Source of the DNA: an uncultured Nitrososphaerota archaeon
GTDB lineage: Archaea > Thermoproteota > Methanomethylicia > Methanomethylicales > Methanomethylicaceae
NCBI GenBank assembly: GCA_964617245.1
Contig: CAZTWF010000106.1
Location: forward strand, 25,811 to 89,810
Direction of reading: 5' to 3'
DNA: 64,000 bases
Shown here: in pieces, positions 9,100 through 39,957 of the stretch
Position numbering within the stretch: the stretch's first letter is position 1
Layout: each line of letters opens with the position of its first letter
The notes under the pieces: generated by a model
What the model was told of the DNA's origin: nothing
The model's database searches: none
Seen by the model: the letters and a program-made list of their open reading frames with translations, nothing else
Program-made: the position numbers and the translations under genes

Positions 9100-9450
9100 G
9101 TGAGTAAACTTGTTATTCCACATCATAAAAGAATTAAAATGATGAAAGCTCCATTATCTAAAGAATTAAGAGAAAAATATGGTATTAGAAATGCTATTGT
9201 TAGAAAAGGAGATACTGTATTAGTTATGAGAGGAGATTATAAAGGACATGAAGGAAAAGTATTATCTGTTGATCCTTCAAAAATGAGAATTACAATTGAA
9301 GGTATAAATATTAAAAAAGCAGATGGATCTCTTCGTCCTGTATATATTCATCCATCTAAGGTTATGATAACAAAATTAGATCTAACTGATAAAAAAAGAA
9401 AAGAAAAAATTGAAAAACTTGAAAAGATGGAAAAAGGTGAAATGAATTGA
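9100..9450 (+). CDS. rpl24: 50S ribosomal protein L24 (KOW)
   Basis: KOW motif, cluster position. Confidence 0.88.
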   Translation: MSKLVIPHHKRIKMMKAPLSKELREKYGIRNAIVRKGDTVLVMRGDYKGHEGKVLSVDPSKMRITIEGINIKKADGSLRPVYIHPSKVMITKLDLTDKKRKEKIEKLEKMEKGEMN

Positions 9451-10181
9451 AAAAACATTTAAAAACATACCCTTCACCACGTTTTTGGCATATAAAAATA
9501 AAAGAAAGTGAATTTACTATAAGACCTTCTCCAGGACCACATCCATTAAGATTTTGTATTCCACTAGGAATAATTGTAAGAGATATTCTAAAATATGCTC
9601 TTACACTCTCTGAAGCAAAGAAAATACTTTCTGAAAGGAAGATTATGGTTGATGGAAAGATTAGAACAGATTATAAATTTCCAGTAGGATTAATGGATGT
9701 AATCCATGTAATTCCATCAGATGAATATTTTAGAGTCCTTCCACATCCAGTAAAGATCTTAACTTTATTTAGAATTCCTCCTGAAGAAGCCTCATATAAG
9801 CTTGTTAGAATTATTGGAAAGCGAACTGTTAAGAGAGGGCATATTCAATTAAACTTTCATGATGGTCGCTGTCATGTTATAAAACTCGAGGATCCTTTTA
9901 ATCATAATATTTCATATAAAATTTATGATAGTATGAAGATAAGCTTACCTGAAGCAGAAATTATTGACTATATCTCACTTAATAAAGACTCTATTGTATC
10001 TATTATTGGTGGAAGTAACATAGGTAAATATGGAAAAGTTTTAGAACCTCCAAAAACTAGAAGTCCAGAACAACTAGTAAAAGTAGCTTTTGATAGTACT
10101 GAGAAAGATATTATTCTTAAATACATATTCCCAATAGGAAAAGAAAGTCCATCAATAAAAATTGATGGAGAAGTGCTTTAA
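9447..10181 (+). CDS. rps4e: 30S ribosomal protein S4e
   Basis: S4e similarity, cluster position. Confidence 0.9.
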   Translation: MKKHLKTYPSPRFWHIKIKESEFTIRPSPGPHPLRFCIPLGIIVRDILKYALTLSEAKKILSERKIMVDGKIRTDYKFPVGLMDVIHVIPSDEYFRVLPHPVKILTLFRIPPEEASYKLVRIIGKRTVKRGHIQLNFHDGRCHVIKLEDPFNHNISYKIYDSMKISLPEAEIIDYISLNKDSIVSIIGGSNIGKYGKVLEPPKTRSPEQLVKVAFDSTEKDIILKYIFPIGKESPSIKIDGEVL

Positions 10182-17341: not shown

Positions 17342-17896
17342 TTGAAGATAAAGAATTTAATTATAACAATAGGTGGTCCACCAGGATCTGGCAAATCTTA
17401 TTGTGCAACTCAATTAGCTAGTATTTATAAAATTCCACATTATTCTATTGGTAAAATATTTAGAGATATGGCTCGAGAACGTAATATGACAATTGAGGAA
17501 TTTTCAAAATTAGCTGAAAAAGATTATACAATAGATATAGAATTAGATAAAAGAACTATGGAATTAGCAAAAAGTGGTGGATGTATTATAGAAGGAAGAT
17601 TAGTCTCCTTTTTCTTGAGATCTTTTCCAAATATACTAAGTTTTTATCTTACAGCATCATTTGAAGAAAGAGTAAAAAGAATTGCTTTAAGAGAAGGTAT
17701 TAGTATTGAAGAAGCTGAAAAAAAGACTAGAATAAGAGAAGAAAGTGAAAAAATGAGATATAAAGTAATTTATAATATTGATGTAGATGATTTGTCAGTT
17801 TATGATTTTGTAATAAATACATCAAAATGGAATAAAGAAAAAATAGTTCTCTTATTAAAACAGATAATAGATTTATATTTAGGGGAAGACGATTGA
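17342..17896 (+). CDS. cmk: cytidylate kinase, archaeal type
   Basis: P-loop GGPPGSGKS; similarity to archaeal Cmk. Confidence 0.85.
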   Translation: MKIKNLIITIGGPPGSGKSYCATQLASIYKIPHYSIGKIFRDMARERNMTIEEFSKLAEKDYTIDIELDKRTMELAKSGGCIIEGRLVSFFLRSFPNILSFYLTASFEERVKRIALREGISIEEAEKKTRIREESEKMRYKVIYNIDVDDLSVYDFVINTSKWNKEKIVLLLKQIIDLYLGEDD

Positions 17897-18855
17897 GTGG
17901 AGAACTTTTAATAAAAGATGAAGAGAAAACAAATCCAAATTTTGGATGGAAACCTAGAGAACGTCCTATAAAAGAATATATTGAAACAGGTGTAATAAAT
18001 CTAGATAAACCTCCAGGTCCTACTAGTCATGAAGTAGTAGCTTGGGTTAAACGTATGCTCTCTATAGATAGAGCAGGTCATGGTGGCACTCTTGATCCTA
18101 AAGTAACTGGAGTTTTACCAATAACACTAGGAAGAGCAACACGACTTATTTCATTTATTATGAAATCAGGAAAAGAATATGTTACTATTGTAGAATTACA
18201 TGAAGATATTAGTGAAGAAAGATTAAGAGAGGTTATTAGTGAATTTATTGGTCCAATTTATCAAATACCTCCTATAAGATCTTCTGTGAAAAGAGCTTTA
18301 AGAATTAGAACTATAAACTCAATAAAAATTTTAGAAAAAATTGGAAAATTTGTTTTAATGAGAGTAGATTGTGAAGCTGGTACTTATATAAGAAAACTCT
18401 GTCATGATATAGGTGAAGTTCTTGGTTGTGGGGCTCATATGAAGGAACTTCGTAGAGTAAGAGCTGGACCATTTAGAGAAGAAACCTCTATTACTCTTTA
18501 TACCCTTCTAGATGCTATAACATTATGGAAGGAATATAATAATGAAAGTCTAATAAGAAAAGTTATTATACCAATTGAAGAAGCTATTATAGATTTTCCT
18601 AAGATATATGTAAGAGATTCTGCTATTGATGCTCTATGTCATGGTGCAAATTTAGCAGCACCTGGTGTATTACGTTTAAGTAAAGGAATAAAGCCAGGAG
18701 ATATTGTTTGTGTTATGAGCTTAAAAGATGAACTTGTAGGAATTGGAAAAGCTTTAAAATCTAGTGAAGAAATTTTAGAATTAGAACATGGTATTATTGT
18801 AGATATGGAAAGAATAATAATGGAACCAGGTTTATATCCAAAAGGTTGGGAATAA
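17893..18855 (+). CDS. cbf5: tRNA/rRNA pseudouridine synthase Cbf5 (H/ACA RNP catalytic subunit)
   Basis: TruB motif GHGGTLDP, C-terminal PUA domain; uninterrupted ORF (no intron). Confidence 0.92.
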   Translation: MSGELLIKDEEKTNPNFGWKPRERPIKEYIETGVINLDKPPGPTSHEVVAWVKRMLSIDRAGHGGTLDPKVTGVLPITLGRATRLISFIMKSGKEYVTIVELHEDISEERLREVISEFIGPIYQIPPIRSSVKRALRIRTINSIKILEKIGKFVLMRVDCEAGTYIRKLCHDIGEVLGCGAHMKELRRVRAGPFREETSITLYTLLDAITLWKEYNNESLIRKVIIPIEEAIIDFPKIYVRDSAIDALCHGANLAAPGVLRLSKGIKPGDIVCVMSLKDELVGIGKALKSSEEILELEHGIIVDMERIIMEPGLYPKGWE

Positions 18856-19460
18856 TGAATACTATTCATTATTTTACAAAACAACCTACTAAACATAAAT
18901 ATAAAATTAGTTTCGAATTAGCAGGTACTACTATCAATTTATTAAGTAGTAATGGAGTATTCTCTAAAAAACATATTGATACTGGTACAAAAGTCTTAAT
19001 TGAAAGCATAGTAGAAAAAATTTCAATTCATGAAAATGCAGAAATTTTAGATTTAGGATGTGGATATGGTATTATAGGAATTACAATTGCTAAATTAAAT
19101 CCAAAAGCTAAAGTAACAATGGTTGATATAAATCCATTAGCCATAAAACTTACTAATGAAAATATTAAATTAAATCTAGTAGAAAATGCTATAGTCATAA
19201 GAAGTCATTTATATTCTCAGCTTGAAAATAAAAAATTTGATTTTATTATCTCAAATCCTCCTCTAGCTGCTGGTTATAAAGTAATCTTTCCTTTAATAGA
19301 AGGAGCTAAAGATCATCTTAAAGAAAGAGGACGAATTATCATAGTTTTAAGAAAAGGAATAAATACTATTCCAAAAAAGATGAAAGATGTTTTTGGAAAT
19401 GTAGAACTATTATATAAAAGAGCAGGATATAGAGTATTTCAATCAATTAAAACTTCATAA
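18846..19460 (+). CDS. class I SAM-dependent methyltransferase (small-domain, NPPL motif; RsmC/METTL5-like)
   Basis: LDLGCGYGIIG SAM motif I and ISNPPL motif IV. Confidence 0.7.
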   Translation: MGIMNTIHYFTKQPTKHKYKISFELAGTTINLLSSNGVFSKKHIDTGTKVLIESIVEKISIHENAEILDLGCGYGIIGITIAKLNPKAKVTMVDINPLAIKLTNENIKLNLVENAIVIRSHLYSQLENKKFDFIISNPPLAAGYKVIFPLIEGAKDHLKERGRIIIVLRKGINTIPKKMKDVFGNVELLYKRAGYRVFQSIKTS

Positions 19461-19565
19461 AAGTAAATATAAATAATATTATTCAAATCATTTATAATTA
19501 TTATAATTATTTATAGAAAAAAATAATAAATTCTGTAACTTAATCGATAATGAGAATTATCCCCA

Positions 19566-19677
19566 GCCGAGGTCTCCTAGTCTGGTAGGGAGCAGAAAAT
19601 AGCTTAAGCCTGGAGAGATTCCCTGTTAGCCTGTGCCCATTATGGGCTCGGGGGTTCAAATCCCCCCCTCGGCGCCA
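19566..19677 (+). tRNA. tRNA-Ser (anticodon GGA) with two predicted 12-nt introns (19596-19607 at 29/30; 19616-19627 at 37/38)
   Basis: Acceptor GCCGAGG/CCTCGGC, D-arm TCC-TAGTCTGGTAG-GGA, T-arm GGGGG-TTCAAAT-CCCCC, long variable arm TGCCCATTATGGGCTC, discriminator G + CCA; spliced anticodon arm CAGGC-CUGGAGA-GCCUG; close to M. jannaschii tRNA-Ser architecture. Confidence 0.75.
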
Positions 19678-19762
19678 TTTATAGCAGAAAGCTTAATATT
19701 GCGCAATTCTTAAATATTTTTAATTTCTGGTTTTTAATCTTGCTATAGTGGGTAGATAGAAA

Positions 19763-20236
19763 TTGAGTACTTCATATAGACACGTAATAAGAATATTGGA
19801 TACAGATTTAAAAGGAGATGAAAAGTTAGCTTACGCTCTAGCTAGACTTAGGGGTATTGGTATAAATACCTCATATGCAGTTTTAAAAATTTGTAATATA
19901 GATCCAGAAATACGAGTAGGATATTTACAAGATAGTGATATAAAGAAAATTGAAGAAATTCTATCAAACTTACCATCATATTTACCTTCATATATGCTAA
20001 ATAGAAGAAAAGATTTACTAACAGGAAAAGACCTACATCTTCTTGGCTCAGATTTAGTACTTTCAATGAAAATGGACATAGATTTAATGAAAAAGATAAA
20101 ATGTTGGAAAGGAATTCGTCATGCACTTGGCTTAAAAGTACGTGGACAATGCACTAGAACTACTGGTAGATTTGGAACAACTGTTGGAGTTGTAAGAAAA
20201 TCTGTACAACAACAAAAGAAAGAAAAAGAAAAATAA
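19763..20236 (+). CDS. rps13: 30S ribosomal protein S13
   Basis: S13 similarity; TTG start. Confidence 0.88.
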   Translation: MSTSYRHVIRILDTDLKGDEKLAYALARLRGIGINTSYAVLKICNIDPEIRVGYLQDSDIKKIEEILSNLPSYLPSYMLNRRKDLLTGKDLHLLGSDLVLSMKMDIDLMKKIKCWKGIRHALGLKVRGQCTRTTGRFGTTVGVVRKSVQQQKKEKEK

Positions 20237-31810: not shown

Positions 31811-33611
31811 ATGCCATTAAGACAACCTATTGTTACAGTATTAGGTCATGTTGATGTTGGAAAAACTCTCTTGTTAGATAAAATAAGAGGAACAGCTGTT
31901 ATGACAAGAGAAATTGGGGCCATGACTGCTTAAAAAGCAGTGGCAGACCCAACATATTGGTGCTAGTTTCCTACCTATGAGTGTAATTGTAAATTATTGT
32001 AGAGCTATTATAAAGAATTTTGAAAGTAAACTTCAAATTCCTGGTTTATTAGTAATTGATACACCTGGTCATGAAGTATTTTCAAATTTAAGATTTAGAG
32101 GAGGAGCAGTTTCTGATATTGCTATTCTTGTTATTGATGTATTAAAAGGTGTTGAAAAACAAACAGAAGAATGTATTGAAATACTTAGATCAAAGAAAAC
32201 ACCTTTTGTAGTTGCAGCAAATAAAATAGATAGAATAGATGGATGGAAACCAAATCCAAATAAACCATTTATTGAGTCATATAAAATGCAAGAATCTTAT
32301 GTAAGATCAAGACTAGATGAATTAATTTATAAAATTATTGGTGAATTATCAAGATTTGGTTTTTCTTCTGATAGATATGATAGAGTAAAAGATTTCACAA
32401 GAACTATTGCCATAGTTCCAACAAGTGCTATTACAGGTGAAGGTATTCCAGAACTTCTTGCTATTCTTTGTGGTTTAGCACAACAATATCTAAAAAGTCG
32501 TTTAACAATTACAGAAGGACCTGGAAAAGGTGTTATACTTGAGAAAAAAGAAGAAGCTGGACTTGGTACAACAATAGATGTTATTTTATATGATGGTATC
32601 ATAAAAAAAGGTGATACTATTATTGTTGGTGGAATTGAAGGTCCAATCATAACAAAAGTAAGAGCTCTTTTACTTCCAAAGCCTTTAGATGAAATGAGAG
32701 ATCCAGAAGATAAGTTCCTTCTTGTTGATAAAGTAGTAGCTGCTGCTGGTGTAAAAATTGTTGCAACTAATCTTGAAAAAGCCATAGGAGGAGCTCCTAT
32801 AATTGTAGTTAGTGATGAACAATCTATTGACTCTATTAAAAATAAAATTAAAGAAGAAATTGAAGAAATAAGATTCACATCAGATATAGATGGTGTTATT
32901 GTAAAAGCAGATACGTTAGGCTCATTAGAAGCTCTTATTAGATTTCTTAAGAATTCAGGCATACCTATTAGAATCTCTGATATTGGACCAGTTAGTAAAA
33001 AAGACATTATAGAGGCTACTATTGTAAAAAGGAAAAAACCAGAACTTGGTGCAGTATTGGGATTCAATATAGAAGTTACTCAAGAAGCAGAAATAGAAAG
33101 TAAAAGTAGAAATATTCCTATATTCGTTAGTAATGTAATATATCATGTTGTTGATAACTTTAAGGCTTGGTATTCAAAAATAGTAGAAGAGTTACAAACA
33201 AAAGAATTTAGTAAGATTATTCTTCCTGGAGCTATAAAAGTTCTTCCTGGATATGTATTTAGAAGAAGTGATCCTCCTATATTTGGTATTGAGGTTTTAA
33301 TTGGAACTATTAAGCCAGGTTATTCATTAATGAAGGAAAATGGTGAAATTATAGGAGAAATTATGCAAATACAAGAACATGGAAATAATCTAAATGAAGC
33401 AAAGAAAGGTGCTAAAGTAGCAATTTCAGTAAGAGGTAATTTTACAGTAGGTAGACAAGTTAAAGAAGGAGATATACTTTATGTTTATGTAAGTGATAAT
33501 GATATATTTCTATTAAAAGAAAAATTTAGAGATAAATTATCTCAAGAAGAATTAGAATTACTTGATAAAATACTAAAAATGCAATTAAGTGGTGAGATTA
33601 TTAAAATTTAG
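31811..33611 (+). CDS. infB: translation initiation factor aIF5B (IF2 homolog), interrupted by a 22-nt BHB intron (31925-31946); mature product ~592 aa
   Basis: Exon 1 (frame 2) gives [38 protein letters not shown] then hits UAA; exon 2 (frame 0) continues [10 protein letters not shown]...IDTPGHE...; splicing at the BHB bulges gives REIGAMTQHIGA, matching canonical REAGGITQHIGA spacing. Confidence 0.85.
31925..31946 (+). other. predicted BHB-type (tRNA-splicing-endonuclease) intron within infB mRNA
   Basis: Helix 31914-18/31948-52 (5 bp); bulge 31945-47; helix 31919-22/31941-44 (4 bp); bulge 31923-25; helix 31926-30/31936-40 (5 bp); loop 31931-35; contains in-frame TAA; length is 1 mod 3 as required to join the frames. 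Confidence 0.75.
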
Positions 33612-37022: not shown

Positions 37023-38276
37023 TTAAATCCAGCCTCTTGTTTTCATTGCATCAACTACTCTACTTATTGCACAAATATATGCTGCCATTCTCATATCTAC
37101 ATTGTAGTTACAATAAGTTTCATAAACTCTATTAAAAGCTTTTACTAGTAATTTATCAAGTTTATCAAATACTTCTTCCTTACTCCAATAATATCCTTGT
37201 AGATTCTGAACCCATTCAAAGTATGATACACTAACACCTCCAGCATTTGCTAATATATCTGGTACTACCATGCTCCCTTTCTTATGAAGTATATCATCAG
37301 CCTCAGGTGTTGTAGGTCCATTTGCACCTTCTAATATTAATTTTGCTTTTATTCTATCAGCATTTTTCTCAGTTATTTGATTTTCAAGTGCTGCTGGAAT
37401 AAGTATATCACATTCTTTCTCTAATAATTCTTCATTACTTACTACTTCAGCTCCAGGATAATTAATAACACTTCCAGTTTTTTTCTTAAATTCTAAAACA
37501 GCATCAGCTGAAAAACCATCTTTATTGTAAATTCCTCCTCTTGAATCACTTATTCCAATAATTTTACAACCTAATTTTTCCATGAAATATGCAGAATAAT
37601 AGCCTACATTTCCAAATCCTTGTACTATTACTTTTGCATTTTTTAAATCAATATTTAATTTCTTTGCAGCTTCTCTTCCTACTATAGCAACACCAAGTCC
37701 AGTGGCTTCTGTCCTTCCTTCTGATCCACCTATATTTACAGGTTTACCTGTAATTACACCTGGAACATTATATCCTTTCCATTTACTATATTCATCCATG
37801 AACCATGCCATTTCTCTACTTGAAGTATTTACATCTCCTGCAGGAATGTCTATTTCTGGTCCTACAATTCTTGATATTGCATAAAAGTAACCTCTTGATA
37901 ATCTTTCTATTTCACCAATACTCATTTCTTTTGGATTACAAATAACTCCTCCTTTTCCTCCTCCATATGGCAATCCTACTACTGAACACTTCCATGTCAT
38001 CCACATTGACAATGCAATTACTTCTTCCATTGTGACATTTGGATGATATCGTATACCTCCTTTAAATGGCCCTAAAGCATCATTATGTTGAGATCTAAAA
38101 CCTCTAAATACTTTTATGGTACCATTATCCATTCTTACAGGAATATATACACATAGAACTCTTTTTGGATATTTGAGAATTTCATGTGCATTTGGGTCTA
38201 AGTTCATTATTTTTGCACATTTATTTAATTGTTCTAAAGCCATTTCATATGGATTTCTTTCGTACATAGTCTTCAC
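37023..38276 (-). CDS. gdhA: glutamate dehydrogenase
   Basis: 417 aa; GGGKGG and NAD(P)-binding GFGNVG motifs. Confidence 0.93.
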   Translation of the reverse strand: MKTMYERNPYEMALEQLNKCAKIMNLDPNAHEILKYPKRVLCVYIPVRMDNGTIKVFRGFRSQHNDALGPFKGGIRYHPNVTMEEVIALSMWMTWKCSVVGLPYGGGKGGVICNPKEMSIGEIERLSRGYFYAISRIVGPEIDIPAGDVNTSSREMAWFMDEYSKWKGYNVPGVITGKPVNIGGSEGRTEATGLGVAIVGREAAKKLNIDLKNAKVIVQGFGNVGYYSAYFMEKLGCKIIGISDSRGGIYNKDGFSADAVLEFKKKTGSVINYPGAEVVSNEELLEKECDILIPAALENQITEKNADRIKAKLILEGANGPTTPEADDILHKKGSMVVPDILANAGGVSVSYFEWVQNLQGYYWSKEEVFDKLDKLLVKAFNRVYETYCNYNVDMRMAAYICAISRVVDAMKTRGWI

Positions 38277-38457
38277 TAGTTCAAAATGTTTTATTAAACT
38301 TACTAATATTCTTTTCCTTATTTAAATTAAGATTTTTTATAAAAGCTATTTATTTTATTAAAAAATTTAAAAATATTAAGAAATTCTTAATGGAAGTTAG
38401 ATTATCAACTACCGATAAGCTAAAAAAGGTGCTTTTTCTCTACTTTCTTGATCTAAT

Positions 38458-38775
38458 ATGTCTTCAGAGGGAATACAAATCTCTATAATTGATGATAAAT
38501 ATAACTCTGTTATGCAACGAAGAGAACTTAAGGTAGAGATAGTTTCAAAGAGTACTCCAAGTAGAGATTCATTAAGAAAAATTCTAGCAGATTTCTTTAA
38601 AGTTCCAGTAGAATGTCTTTTTGTAATAAATTGTATTACATCATTTGGAACAAATACTTCAATATGTAGAGTTCATATCTATAATGATGCAGAATATGGA
38701 AAAAAGATAGAACCAAAATACATACAATTAAGAAATTTACCAAGAGAAGAACGTAAAAAATTAATGAGTAAGTAG
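38458..38775 (+). CDS. rps24e: 30S ribosomal protein S24e
   Basis: S24e similarity (TPSR..., KIEPKY). Confidence 0.85.
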   Translation: MSSEGIQISIIDDKYNSVMQRRELKVEIVSKSTPSRDSLRKILADFFKVPVECLFVINCITSFGTNTSICRVHIYNDAEYGKKIEPKYIQLRNLPREERKKLMSK

Positions 38776-38783
38776 GTGAATTT

Positions 38784-38954
38784 ATGGCAAAGAAAACAAA
38801 ACCACATGAACTTTATGAATATGATTATTCTAAAGGTACAATAAAACCAAAAAATAAGATATGTTCAAGATGTGGAAAATTTATGGCAAAACATACAAAA
38901 CCAGTTCCAAGATGGGCTTGTGGATATTGTGGATACACAATATTTATACATTAA
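38784..38954 (+). CDS. rps27ae: 30S ribosomal protein S27ae (zinc ribbon)
   Basis: 56-aa ORF MAKKTKPHELYEYDYSKGTIKPKNKICSRCGKFMAKH...CGYCGYT; below ORF-track cutoff. Confidence 0.85.
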   Translation: MAKKTKPHELYEYDYSKGTIKPKNKICSRCGKFMAKHTKPVPRWACGYCGYTIFIH

Positions 38955-38964
38955 GGTATAATCT

Positions 38965-39957
38965 ATGAAAGTTTACATAATGGGTATAGAATCTACAGCT
39001 CATACTTTTGGTTGTAGCATTGTAACATCTAATGGAGAAATATTATCAAATGTAAAATCTGAATATGTCCCTCCTTCTGGAGGAATACATCCAAGAGAAG
39101 CTAGTCAACATCATTCTCAAAAAGCATTATCTGTAATAAAAAAAGCTTTAGAAGAAGCAAAAATTTCTATTTATGATATAGATGGAGTAGCTATATCCTT
39201 AGGTCCAGGATTAGGTCCATGTCTTAGAACTGGTGCTACAATTGCAAGAGCTATTGCATTATTAATAAATAAACCATTAATTCCTGTAAATCATTGTGTA
39301 GCTCATATAGAAATAGGAAGATTGGTTACTAAAGAAGAAGATCCTTTAGTAGTATATGTTTCTGGTGGAAATACTATAATTTCAGCTTTTTCAGATGGTA
39401 GATATAGAGTATTTGGAGAGACTTTAGATATTGCCTTAGGAAATTGTCTTGATGTATTTGCTAGATACTTAGGATTATCTCATCCTGGTGTTCCAAAACT
39501 TGAAGCTTTAGCAGATAAAGGAAAGAATTTTATTTTCCTACCATATATAGTAAAAGGACAAGATGTTTCTTATTCTGGTTTATTAACAACAGCAATAAAA
39601 TATATTGGAAAATATGATCCATGTGATTTAAGTATGAGTTTATTAGAAACAGCTTATGGTATGTTAGCAGAAGTAACAGAAAGAGCTTTAGCTCATACAG
39701 AAAAAACCTCTTTACTTCTTACAGGAGGAGTTGCAAGAAGTTTACGTTTACAAAGAATTTTAAAATCTGTTTGTGAAGAACATTCAGCAAGATTTCATGT
39801 AGTTCCTCCTGAACTTGCTGGAGATAATGCTGCTATGATTGCTTGGACAGGATATTTAGCATATAAAGAAAATATTACCATACCAATAGAATCAAGTTTT
39901 ATAAAACAGAGATGGCGACTTGATGAGGTTGAAATTCCATGGAGAATGAAATATTAA
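38965..39957 (+). CDS. kae1: tRNA N6-adenosine threonylcarbamoyltransferase Kae1 (KEOPS)
   Basis: Kae1/TsaD ASKH-fold signature; followed by bud32. Confidence 0.92.
   Translation: MKVYIMGIESTAHTFGCSIVTSNGEILSNVKSEYVPPSGGIHPREASQHHSQKALSVIKKALEEAKISIYDIDGVAISLGPGLGPCLRTGATIARAIALLINKPLIPVNHCVAHIEIGRLVTKEEDPLVVYVSGGNTIISAFSDGRYRVFGETLDIALGNCLDVFARYLGLSHPGVPKLEALADKGKNFIFLPYIVKGQDVSYSGLLTTAIKYIGKYDPCDLSMSLLETAYGMLAEVTERALAHTEKTSLLLTGGVARSLRLQRILKSVCEEHSARFHVVPPELAGDNAAMIAWTGYLAYKENITIPIESSFIKQRWRLDEVEIPWRMKY

Follow-up and report, generated by a model that had tools for sequence, protein, structure and literature searches.

How could a stretch of DNA that has both ends of a serine tRNA, and an anticodon region about 24 nt too long for one, give rise to a tRNA? 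The question is raised by positions 19566-19677 (+ strand) of the 64,000-nt window of archaeal DNA analysed here. Coordinates are positions within this window, position 1 being its first letter, except where they accompany the handle of a related locus. The stretch is very probably the gene for a class II tRNA-Ser(GGA) of Candidatus Methanomethylicota, carrying two 12-nt introns, each of which would be excised by the splicing endonuclease.

Removal of two 12-nt segments restores a serine tRNA

The acceptor stem is formed by GCCGAGG at 19566-19572 and CCTCGGC at 19667-19673, with G73 at 19674. Between G26 and the variable arm lie 41 nt, of which an anticodon arm needs 17; this bears out the excess of about 24 nt claimed in an earlier reading made from the letters alone (the sequence-only reading). 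The same reading had proposed that excision of 19596-19607 and 19616-19627 would give a Watson-Crick anticodon stem, U33 and the anticodon GGA. When both segments were removed in silico, ARAGORN agreed, calling the resulting 88-mer a tRNA-Ser(GGA) with a perfect cloverleaf; excision of just one of the segments gave no good tRNA. The spliced anticodon arm is CAGGC-CUGGAGA-GCCUG, and its loop (C32 U33 G34 G35 A36 G37 A38) places a serine anticodon between U33 and a purine at position 37. A class II cloverleaf, with a 7-bp acceptor stem, a D arm, a 5-bp anticodon stem closing a 7-nt loop, and a T arm whose loop is of the GTTCRAAT type, forms after splicing and fails to form in the unspliced sequence. 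The rest of the gene, as had also been proposed, is that of an archaeal tRNA-Ser, with the acceptor stem, D arm, T arm, long variable arm, G73 and CCA end all in place. The variable region is 16 nt long and holds a GCCCA/UGGGC hairpin, an architecture like that of an intron-less korarchaeal gene (locus L031, see below). G73 is the mark of serine in archaea.

Read along the + strand, the 5′ exon (19566-19595; tRNA nt 1-29) comprises the acceptor strand GCCGAGG, U8 C9, the D arm UCCU-AGUCUGGUA-GGGA, G26, and C27 A28 G29; it is delimited by the sequence and by ARAGORN, and is identical in the related loci L001-L010. Intron 1 (19596-19607; 12 nt, AAAATAGCTTAA) splits the 5′ strand of the anticodon stem between nt 29 and 30, a placement that comes from in-silico splicing and from relatives. 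The middle exon (19608-19615) supplies nt 30-37, G30 C31 C32 U33 G34 G35 A36 G37, with the anticodon GGA at 19612-19614. Intron 2 (19616-19627; 12 nt, AGATTCCCTGTT) occupies the canonical position 37/38, as indicated by in-silico splicing, motif register and relatives. The 3′ exon (19628-19674; nt 38-73) begins with A38 and continues with GCCUG as the anticodon-stem strand, U-GCCCA-UUA-UGGGC-UC as the variable arm, GGGGG-UUCAAAU-CCCCC as the T arm, CCUCGGC as the acceptor strand and G73 as the discriminator. An encoded CCA end follows at 19675-19677. The G+C content of the window is 28.9%, and 19566-19677 is its sole G+C-rich island. It is also the sole candidate for a T arm plus acceptor stem on either strand, and the sole tRNA-like element of the 64 kb.

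The uniqueness of this solution was examined by enumerating all one- or two-segment removals that leave 17 nt from the 41-nt region, an arm being accepted if it had five Watson-Crick pairs, a pyrimidine at position 32, U33, and a purine at position 37. Two of the 1356 distinct 17-mers passed: the Ser(GGA) arm and a Leu(UAA) arm, CAGAG-CUUAAGC-CUCUG. By itself, the arm suggests the serine solution and does not make it unique. Archaeal introns are marked by what is called a BHB motif (for bulge-helix-bulge), in which a 4-bp helix lies between two 3-nt bulges; the reduced forms hBH, HBh′ and bulge-helix-loop (BHL) are also accepted in some lineages (PMC4090602, PMC6379350). When the enumerated solutions were additionally required to show a central helix with at least three of four pairs (exon nt -6 to -3 with intron nt n-5 to n-2) and two outer pairs, the Ser(GGA) solution alone passed. 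The same product results whether intron 2 is drawn at 37/38, 38/39 or 39/40, and only 37/38 passes this register; the placement of intron 2 there is thus owed to the motif register and not to the spliced product. In shuffles of the 41-nt region, 43 of 3000 yielded any acceptable arm, and none of the 3000 yielded an arm together with both motifs.

Related loci place the junctions at 29/30 and 37/38

A scan with the S13 ribosomal protein, restricted to one genome per species, returned 38 loci. The closest matches were metagenome-assembled genomes (MAGs) of Candidatus Methanomethylicota (Verstraetearchaeota, TACK), with 87-94% protein identity. At the DNA level the window was 93% identical to MAG WYZ-LMO11 (L002), 89% to Bin S31 (L001) and ~75% to SKYB85 (L010). 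A tRNA-Ser gene upstream of S13 was also present in L001-L005, L007, L008 and L010. Further, metagenome contigs were scanned with the pattern TCTGGTAGGGAGCAG, 0-30 nt, GCCTGGAG, 0-30 nt, AGCCTGTG. This added 56 loci, making 64 related loci in all. Since the pattern fixes the middle exon and both its flanks, the invariance of these parts in the 56 loci is not independent evidence; the middle exon is also identical in L001-L010, L031 and L032, which were found independently.

The related loci hold 54 distinct intron pairs, intron 1 being 12-29 nt and intron 2 11-28 nt long, and in their alignment (A1) the length variation is confined exactly to G29/G30 and G37/A38. Intron 2 is absent from L010, L055 and L078, the first two of which are syntenic with S13; L010 reads GCCTGGAG followed directly by AGCCTG. 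Intron 1 is absent from seven metagenome loci (L046, L054, L057, L061, L062, L070 and L080), which read GAGCAG followed directly by GCCTGGAG. The junctions named by the sequence-only reading are therefore exactly those at which intron-lacking alleles and length variants fall, so that excision restores the RNA at the same points at which presence and absence vary among relatives. Neither intron is present in the syntenic gene of the korarchaeal Methanodesulfokora (L031, 3670-3754). Near S13 in other TACK lineages, the genes at L032 (4591-4690, anticodon GGA, on the opposite, - strand) and L036 (2844-2940, anticodon UGA) carry the canonical 37/38 intron only. Because the tRNA-Ser genes near S13 in these other TACK lineages have no intron or only the one at 37/38, the 29/30 intron looks, on this comparison, like an acquisition within Methanomethylicia-related lineages.

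All 88 exon positions of L010 agree with the mature tRNA predicted for the window, despite a genome identity of only ~75%, and the exons of L001 and L002 differ from it by one or two changes in the variable loop, while the introns diverge. In 13 representative sequences all 325 alignment cells of the mature cloverleaf (25 pairs) are paired, compared with 39-64% for slid partners, and changes on both sides of a pair compensate each other at five pairs. CCA is encoded in 57 of the 64 related loci. Judged from these alignments, the exons are under purifying selection, and the intron strands that pair with exons are conserved.

A third intron, at 15/16 in the D loop, was found in nine loci (L063, 9507-9658; L067, L089, L078, L083, L091, L093, L074 and L081). 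It is 14-28 nt long in eight of them (the length for L091 is not included) and ends in GGGGAA or GGGAAA. This end mimics the 3′ strand of the D stem, pairing with U10-U13, and the bulge that comes after it, AA, resembles that of intron 1.

Both introns lie in relaxed splice motifs

The motif of intron 1 spans 19586-19612. Its outer helix pairs U20 A21 G22 G23 (19586-19589) with C31 C32 U33 G34 (19609-19612), and its central 4-bp helix pairs exon nt G24 A25 G26 C27 (19590-19593) with intron nt 7-10, GCUU (19602-19605). The 3′ bulge consists of the last two intron nucleotides, both A, and G30 (19606-19608). At the 5′ site, A28 G29 and the first A of the intron lie within an 8-nt terminal loop (19594-19601). 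The D stem must be open for this motif to form. The central helix has four of four pairs in 44 of the 45 distinct intron 1 sequences, and 43 of the 45 variants end in GCUY-AA; the remainder of the intron varies freely, and longer versions contain an inner hairpin of variable sequence. On alignment A1, the eight pairs of the motif are paired in 100% of cells, compared with 14-59% when slid.

The motif of intron 2 spans 19608-19630 and overlaps that of intron 1 at nt 31-34. Its outer helix pairs G30 C31 (19608-19609) with G39 C40 (19629-19630). In the central helix, C32 U33 G34 G35 (19610-19613) face intron nt 7-10, CCUG (19622-19625), forming three of four pairs around a mismatch of U33 with U. 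The bulges are A36 G37 A on the 5′ side (19614-19616) and U U A38 on the 3′ side (19626-19628). In the alignment 89% of the cells of this motif are paired, and relatives with CUAG in intron 2 make all four central pairs. Neither intron of the window satisfies the strict hBHBh′ definition; both fall within the relaxed one (hBH, HBh′ or BHL), intron 1 with four of four central and two of two outer pairs, and intron 2 with three of four and two of two. The sequence-only reading had described relaxed BHB/BHL contexts with both cuts after nt 2 of 3-nt bulges. That geometry and the bulges stand, except that the 5′ site of intron 1 lies in a loop and not in a closed bulge.

Almost every long version of intron 2 (21-28 nt; L039-L092, for example L040 at 9441-9579) has a conserved GACUAG or GACUGG block ~10 nt before the 3′ end. 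The block is complementary to the D-loop sequence CUAGUC and to C32-G35. These versions share ACAG just before the 3′ bulge, giving three of four central pairs, and their loci are not adjacent to S13.

Standard tools do not recognize the unspliced gene

No tRNA was detected anywhere in the window by ARAGORN at default settings or by Rfam at its gathering threshold. Searching 19450-19800 with Rfam at an E-value threshold gave only T-arm fragments, assigned to tmRNA, mascRNA and Tymo_tRNA-like. The behaviour of the homologues shows where the difficulty lies. ARAGORN with default settings called 0 of 66 unspliced homologues, and after splicing it called 58 of the 66 as tRNA-Ser(GGA); those outside the 58 have the additional D-loop intron at 15/16. 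The Rfam tRNA model gave 56.9 bits to L031, which has no intron, and 44.6 bits to L057, which has the canonical intron only, and it did not detect the related genes that contain intron 1. The misses by default ARAGORN and Rfam are a limit of these tools and not evidence against the gene.

ARAGORN with lowered thresholds also proposed a tRNA-Arg(CCU) spanning 38081-39892 (- strand), with an intron of 1722 nt. This candidate is probably spurious: the span has no candidate for a T arm plus acceptor stem, and it covers ordinary + strand open reading frames (ORFs) at 38458-38775 and 38965-39957.

Alternative readings and points against splicing

Several observations weigh against two spliced introns in this gene, and they are gathered here. 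Splicing itself is something we infer from the DNA. Intron 1 of the window lacks an inner helix and is hence a BHL, and intron 2 combines the U-U mismatch of its central helix with an inner helix of 1 bp (a single G-C). Compensatory changes could not be demonstrated in the helices of either motif, their exon sides being invariant, and for this reason the support for these helices comes from register and conservation. The minimum free energy (MFE) structure of the precursor (-44.1 kcal/mol, z = -1.74) recovers neither splice motif, and conformers that contain them are 7-10 kcal/mol weaker (-36.6 kcal/mol with the motif of intron 1; -33 to -35 kcal/mol with that of intron 2). The seven loci that lack intron 1 are not adjacent to S13 and come from more distant lineages. 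Finally, a search for an EndA gene with a regular expression for its catalytic motif found none in the window or in 747 kb of related loci. The MFE structures of the splicing intermediates are likewise without splice motifs. Folding energy was therefore not taken as evidence, register and conservation being relied on instead, and the energies leave the order of splicing unsettled.

In the MFE structure, CUGGUAGGGAG (19582-19592; D loop and 3′ strand of the D stem) pairs with UUCCCUGUUAG (19619-19629; intron 2 plus A38 G39), in a helix of 11 pairs, four of them G-U. By eye, this helix is weaker with introns of the CUAG type, and it is apparently specific to the CCUG type. It could be a competing conformer of the precursor.

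Among the other explanations, the one that survives best, although very unlikely, is that the locus is a decaying pseudogene, a former tRNA-Ser that was disabled by two insertions and is no longer processed. The failure of standard tools to recognize the gene and the weakness of the splice motifs in thermodynamic prediction are what such a relic would lead one to expect. A relic would hardly have kept its exons as this gene has: they are identical to those of L010 at 88 of 88 positions in a genome of ~75% identity and almost so to those of L001 and L002, while the introns diverge. Compensatory changes preserve every stem across the 13 sequences, 44 of 45 variants have kept the strand of the intron by which it pairs with the exon, and the syntenic position has been retained. 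Further, this sole tRNA-like element of the window would serve 39% of the Ser codons there.

An intact gene with a single intron is scarcely credible. The sequence-only reading had left room for a better-scoring structure of this kind, and the only one that emerged is a tRNA-Leu(AAG) whose anticodon loop holds an intron of 14 nt, the sole call made by ARAGORN on the unspliced sequence when introns were allowed (option -i). This model is clearly worse: its anticodon stem contains two A-C mismatches and its 26-nt variable region is unstructured, where the locus offers G73 and a neat 5-bp variable hairpin like that of the intron-less, syntenic tRNA-Ser L031. The length variation and the intron absence seen in relatives map to 29/30 and 37/38 and not to the junction it proposes, and it is contradicted by L010, in which GCCTGGAGAGCCTG runs contiguous. 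The identities that ARAGORN -i assigned to the homologues were, moreover, inconsistent (Pro, Val, Thr, His and others). A tRNA-Leu(UAA) produced by excisions of 5 nt and 19 nt, with the arm CAGAG-CUUAAGC-CUCUG, has in its favour that it is the only other enumerated product with five Watson-Crick pairs, Y32, U33 and R37, and can be given practically no weight: the removed segments have no BHB-like context, relatives without intron 1 or without intron 2 are unable to form its arm, and G73, among archaeal identity elements, fits Ser rather than Leu. Its 5-nt intron would also fall below the 11-129 nt range reported for archaea (PMC4090602).

A proposed processing pathway

If the tRNA-Ser(GGA) gene is expressed as proposed, its precursor would comprise ~112 nt plus leader and trailer, including the two 12-nt introns. 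Intron 1 would be presented as a bulge-helix-loop at 29/30, held by the outer helix between U20-G23 and C31-G34, and intron 2 in the usual motif of the anticodon loop at 37/38. EndA would excise each of them by cutting after nt 2 of each 3-nt bulge beside the 4-bp helix, and an RtcB-type ligase would join the halves into an 85-nt body with its encoded CCA. The mature RNA would be expected to contain CAGGCCUGGAGAGCCUG as its anticodon-arm stretch. Splicing would probably be sequential, one intron after the other, because the two motifs cannot coexist: each uses nt 31-34 in its own way, and that of intron 1 forms only with the D stem open. For closely spaced introns, removal of one before the motif of the next can form has been described by the authors of tRNAscan-SE 2.0 (PMC8450103).

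The enzyme may be an (αβ)2 EndA with the L1/CSL loop, by analogy with other TACK archaea. This form is reported to be conserved throughout TACK (PMC5829648), and relaxed motifs are cut efficiently only by the (αβ)2 and ε2 forms of EndA (PMC6379350). A more specific and rather doubtful proposal is that the order is obligatory, the motif of intron 2 and then the cloverleaf forming only after intron 1 is gone, and that the 12-nt, loop-only intron at 29/30 is the smallest substrate of the Methanomethylicota endonuclease. If true, the endonuclease would be unusually permissive, a property reflected also in an intron of the infB mRNA (see below), and the tRNA-Ser gene, with presence and absence at 15/16, 29/30 and 37/38, would be a natural series for intron gain, shrinkage and precise loss.

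Relation to known archaeal introns

The novelty of the gene is lower than the sequence-only reading implied, since the 29/30 position, intron lengths down to 11 nt and tRNAs with two or three introns have all been published (PMC4090602, PMC8450103). Non-canonical positions, 29/30 among them, are known, with intron lengths of 11-129 nt and medians of 12-25 nt (PMC4090602). Two or three introns per tRNA gene occur mainly in Thermoproteales, other Crenarchaeota and Thaumarchaeota (PMC4090602, PMC4033280, PMC8450103); the tRNA-Pro(UGG) of Pyrobaculum islandicum, for instance, is interrupted by introns at 25/26, 37/38 and 56/57 (Sugahara et al. 2007/2008, summarised by both PMC4090602 and PMC8450103). 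The sequence-only reading had called such genes a hallmark of a few lineages such as Thermoproteales. The type is indeed known, and the gene agrees with its published features throughout, but the lineage here is Candidatus Methanomethylicota. As in the multi-intron tRNAs of Thermoproteales, the introns are several and short, one of them canonical and the others not, with BHB or relaxed hBH/HBh′ motifs; they lie so close together that removal must be stepwise, and they make the gene invisible to simple finders. Unlike in those cases, both introns are close to the minimum size, with 12 nt here and 11 nt in L001, and intron 1 of the clade of the window lacks any inner helix.

The 29/30 position is also that at which the split tRNA-Ala(CGC/UGC) of Caldivirga maquilingensis is interrupted (PMC4090602). 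In both cases the anticodon stem is broken in its 5′ strand, and a BHB-type motif is involved. The interruption described here differs in being a 12-nt intron in cis, in a tRNA-Ser(GGA) gene that is not split, and in occurring clade-wide with lengths of 12-29 nt. In Aeropyrum pernix, the pre-tRNA-Thr has introns at standard and non-standard positions, which are cut by (αβ)2 EndA through the Crenarchaea-specific loop (Hirata et al. 2011, PMC3241643; PMC6379350). The parallel lies in relaxed motifs as substrates in a TACK archaeon, and the same class of enzyme is presumed, whereas the substrate here is a predicted BHL with an 8-nt loop at 29/30, known from sequence alone.

BHB introns also occur in archaeal mRNA, as in the cbf5 pre-mRNA (Yokobori et al. 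2009, PMC2738675), where the same splicing machinery as that of the tRNA-Ser introns acts on a different substrate. cbf5 is the classic host of such introns in Crenarchaeota; that of the window (17893-18855, +) is a single uninterrupted ORF of 320 aa. An insert of this kind was found in the aIF5B/infB gene (31812-33611, +), as the sequence-only reading had indicated when it compared the geometry of the tRNA introns with that of an infB intron. This insert (31925-31946, ACTGCTTAAAAAGCAGTGGCAG) is 22 nt long and shifts the frame. It lies in a canonical hBHBh′ motif, GGG-GCCA-[UGA]-CUGCUU-AAA-AAGCAG-UGGC-[AGA]-CCC, with the same cut geometry as the tRNA introns. With cuts behind the second nucleotide of both bulges, AUG is joined to ACC CAA, and thereby ..EIGAM to TQHIGA.. 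in frame. None of the related loci that were searched extends over the infB region. This predicted intron shows the BHB machinery to act widely in the genome.

Genomic context and codon demand

The tRNA-Ser gene lies downstream of secY-adk-cmk-cbf5 and is flanked by a methyltransferase gene (18846-19460) and by the S13-S4-S11-rpoD-L18e-L13-S9-rpoN-S2 cluster. The use of serine codons, which the sequence-only reading had pointed to as worth a check, was counted in the 87 ORFs of the window: UCU 443, UCC 33, UCA 407, UCG 3, AGU 304 and AGC 30. UCU and UCC, the codons served by a GGA anticodon, together account for 476 of the 1220 Ser codons (39%), and tRNA-Ser(GGA) is presumably their decoder.

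Significance

The understanding of archaeal tRNA splicing is left unchanged by this finding. What is new is the lineage, a methanogen-related member of TACK; noteworthy besides are how close to minimal both introns are in size, and the series of presence and absence that nature offers. No paper connecting Verstraetearchaeota or Methanomethylicia with introns in tRNA was found in the literature searched, which does not prove that none exists. For the annotation of these archaea the consequence is practical: unless a Methanomethylicota MAG is annotated in an archaeal mode that allows for introns, tRNA-Ser(GGA) would seem to be missing from it. For the history of the introns, the related loci provide a comparative series, drawn from many independent assemblies, in which one exon sequence occurs with 0, 1, 2 or 3 introns. 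Within it, intron 1 goes from 29 nt down to 12 nt as its inner helix is lost, and intron 2 has been lost, apparently precisely, in one close relative.

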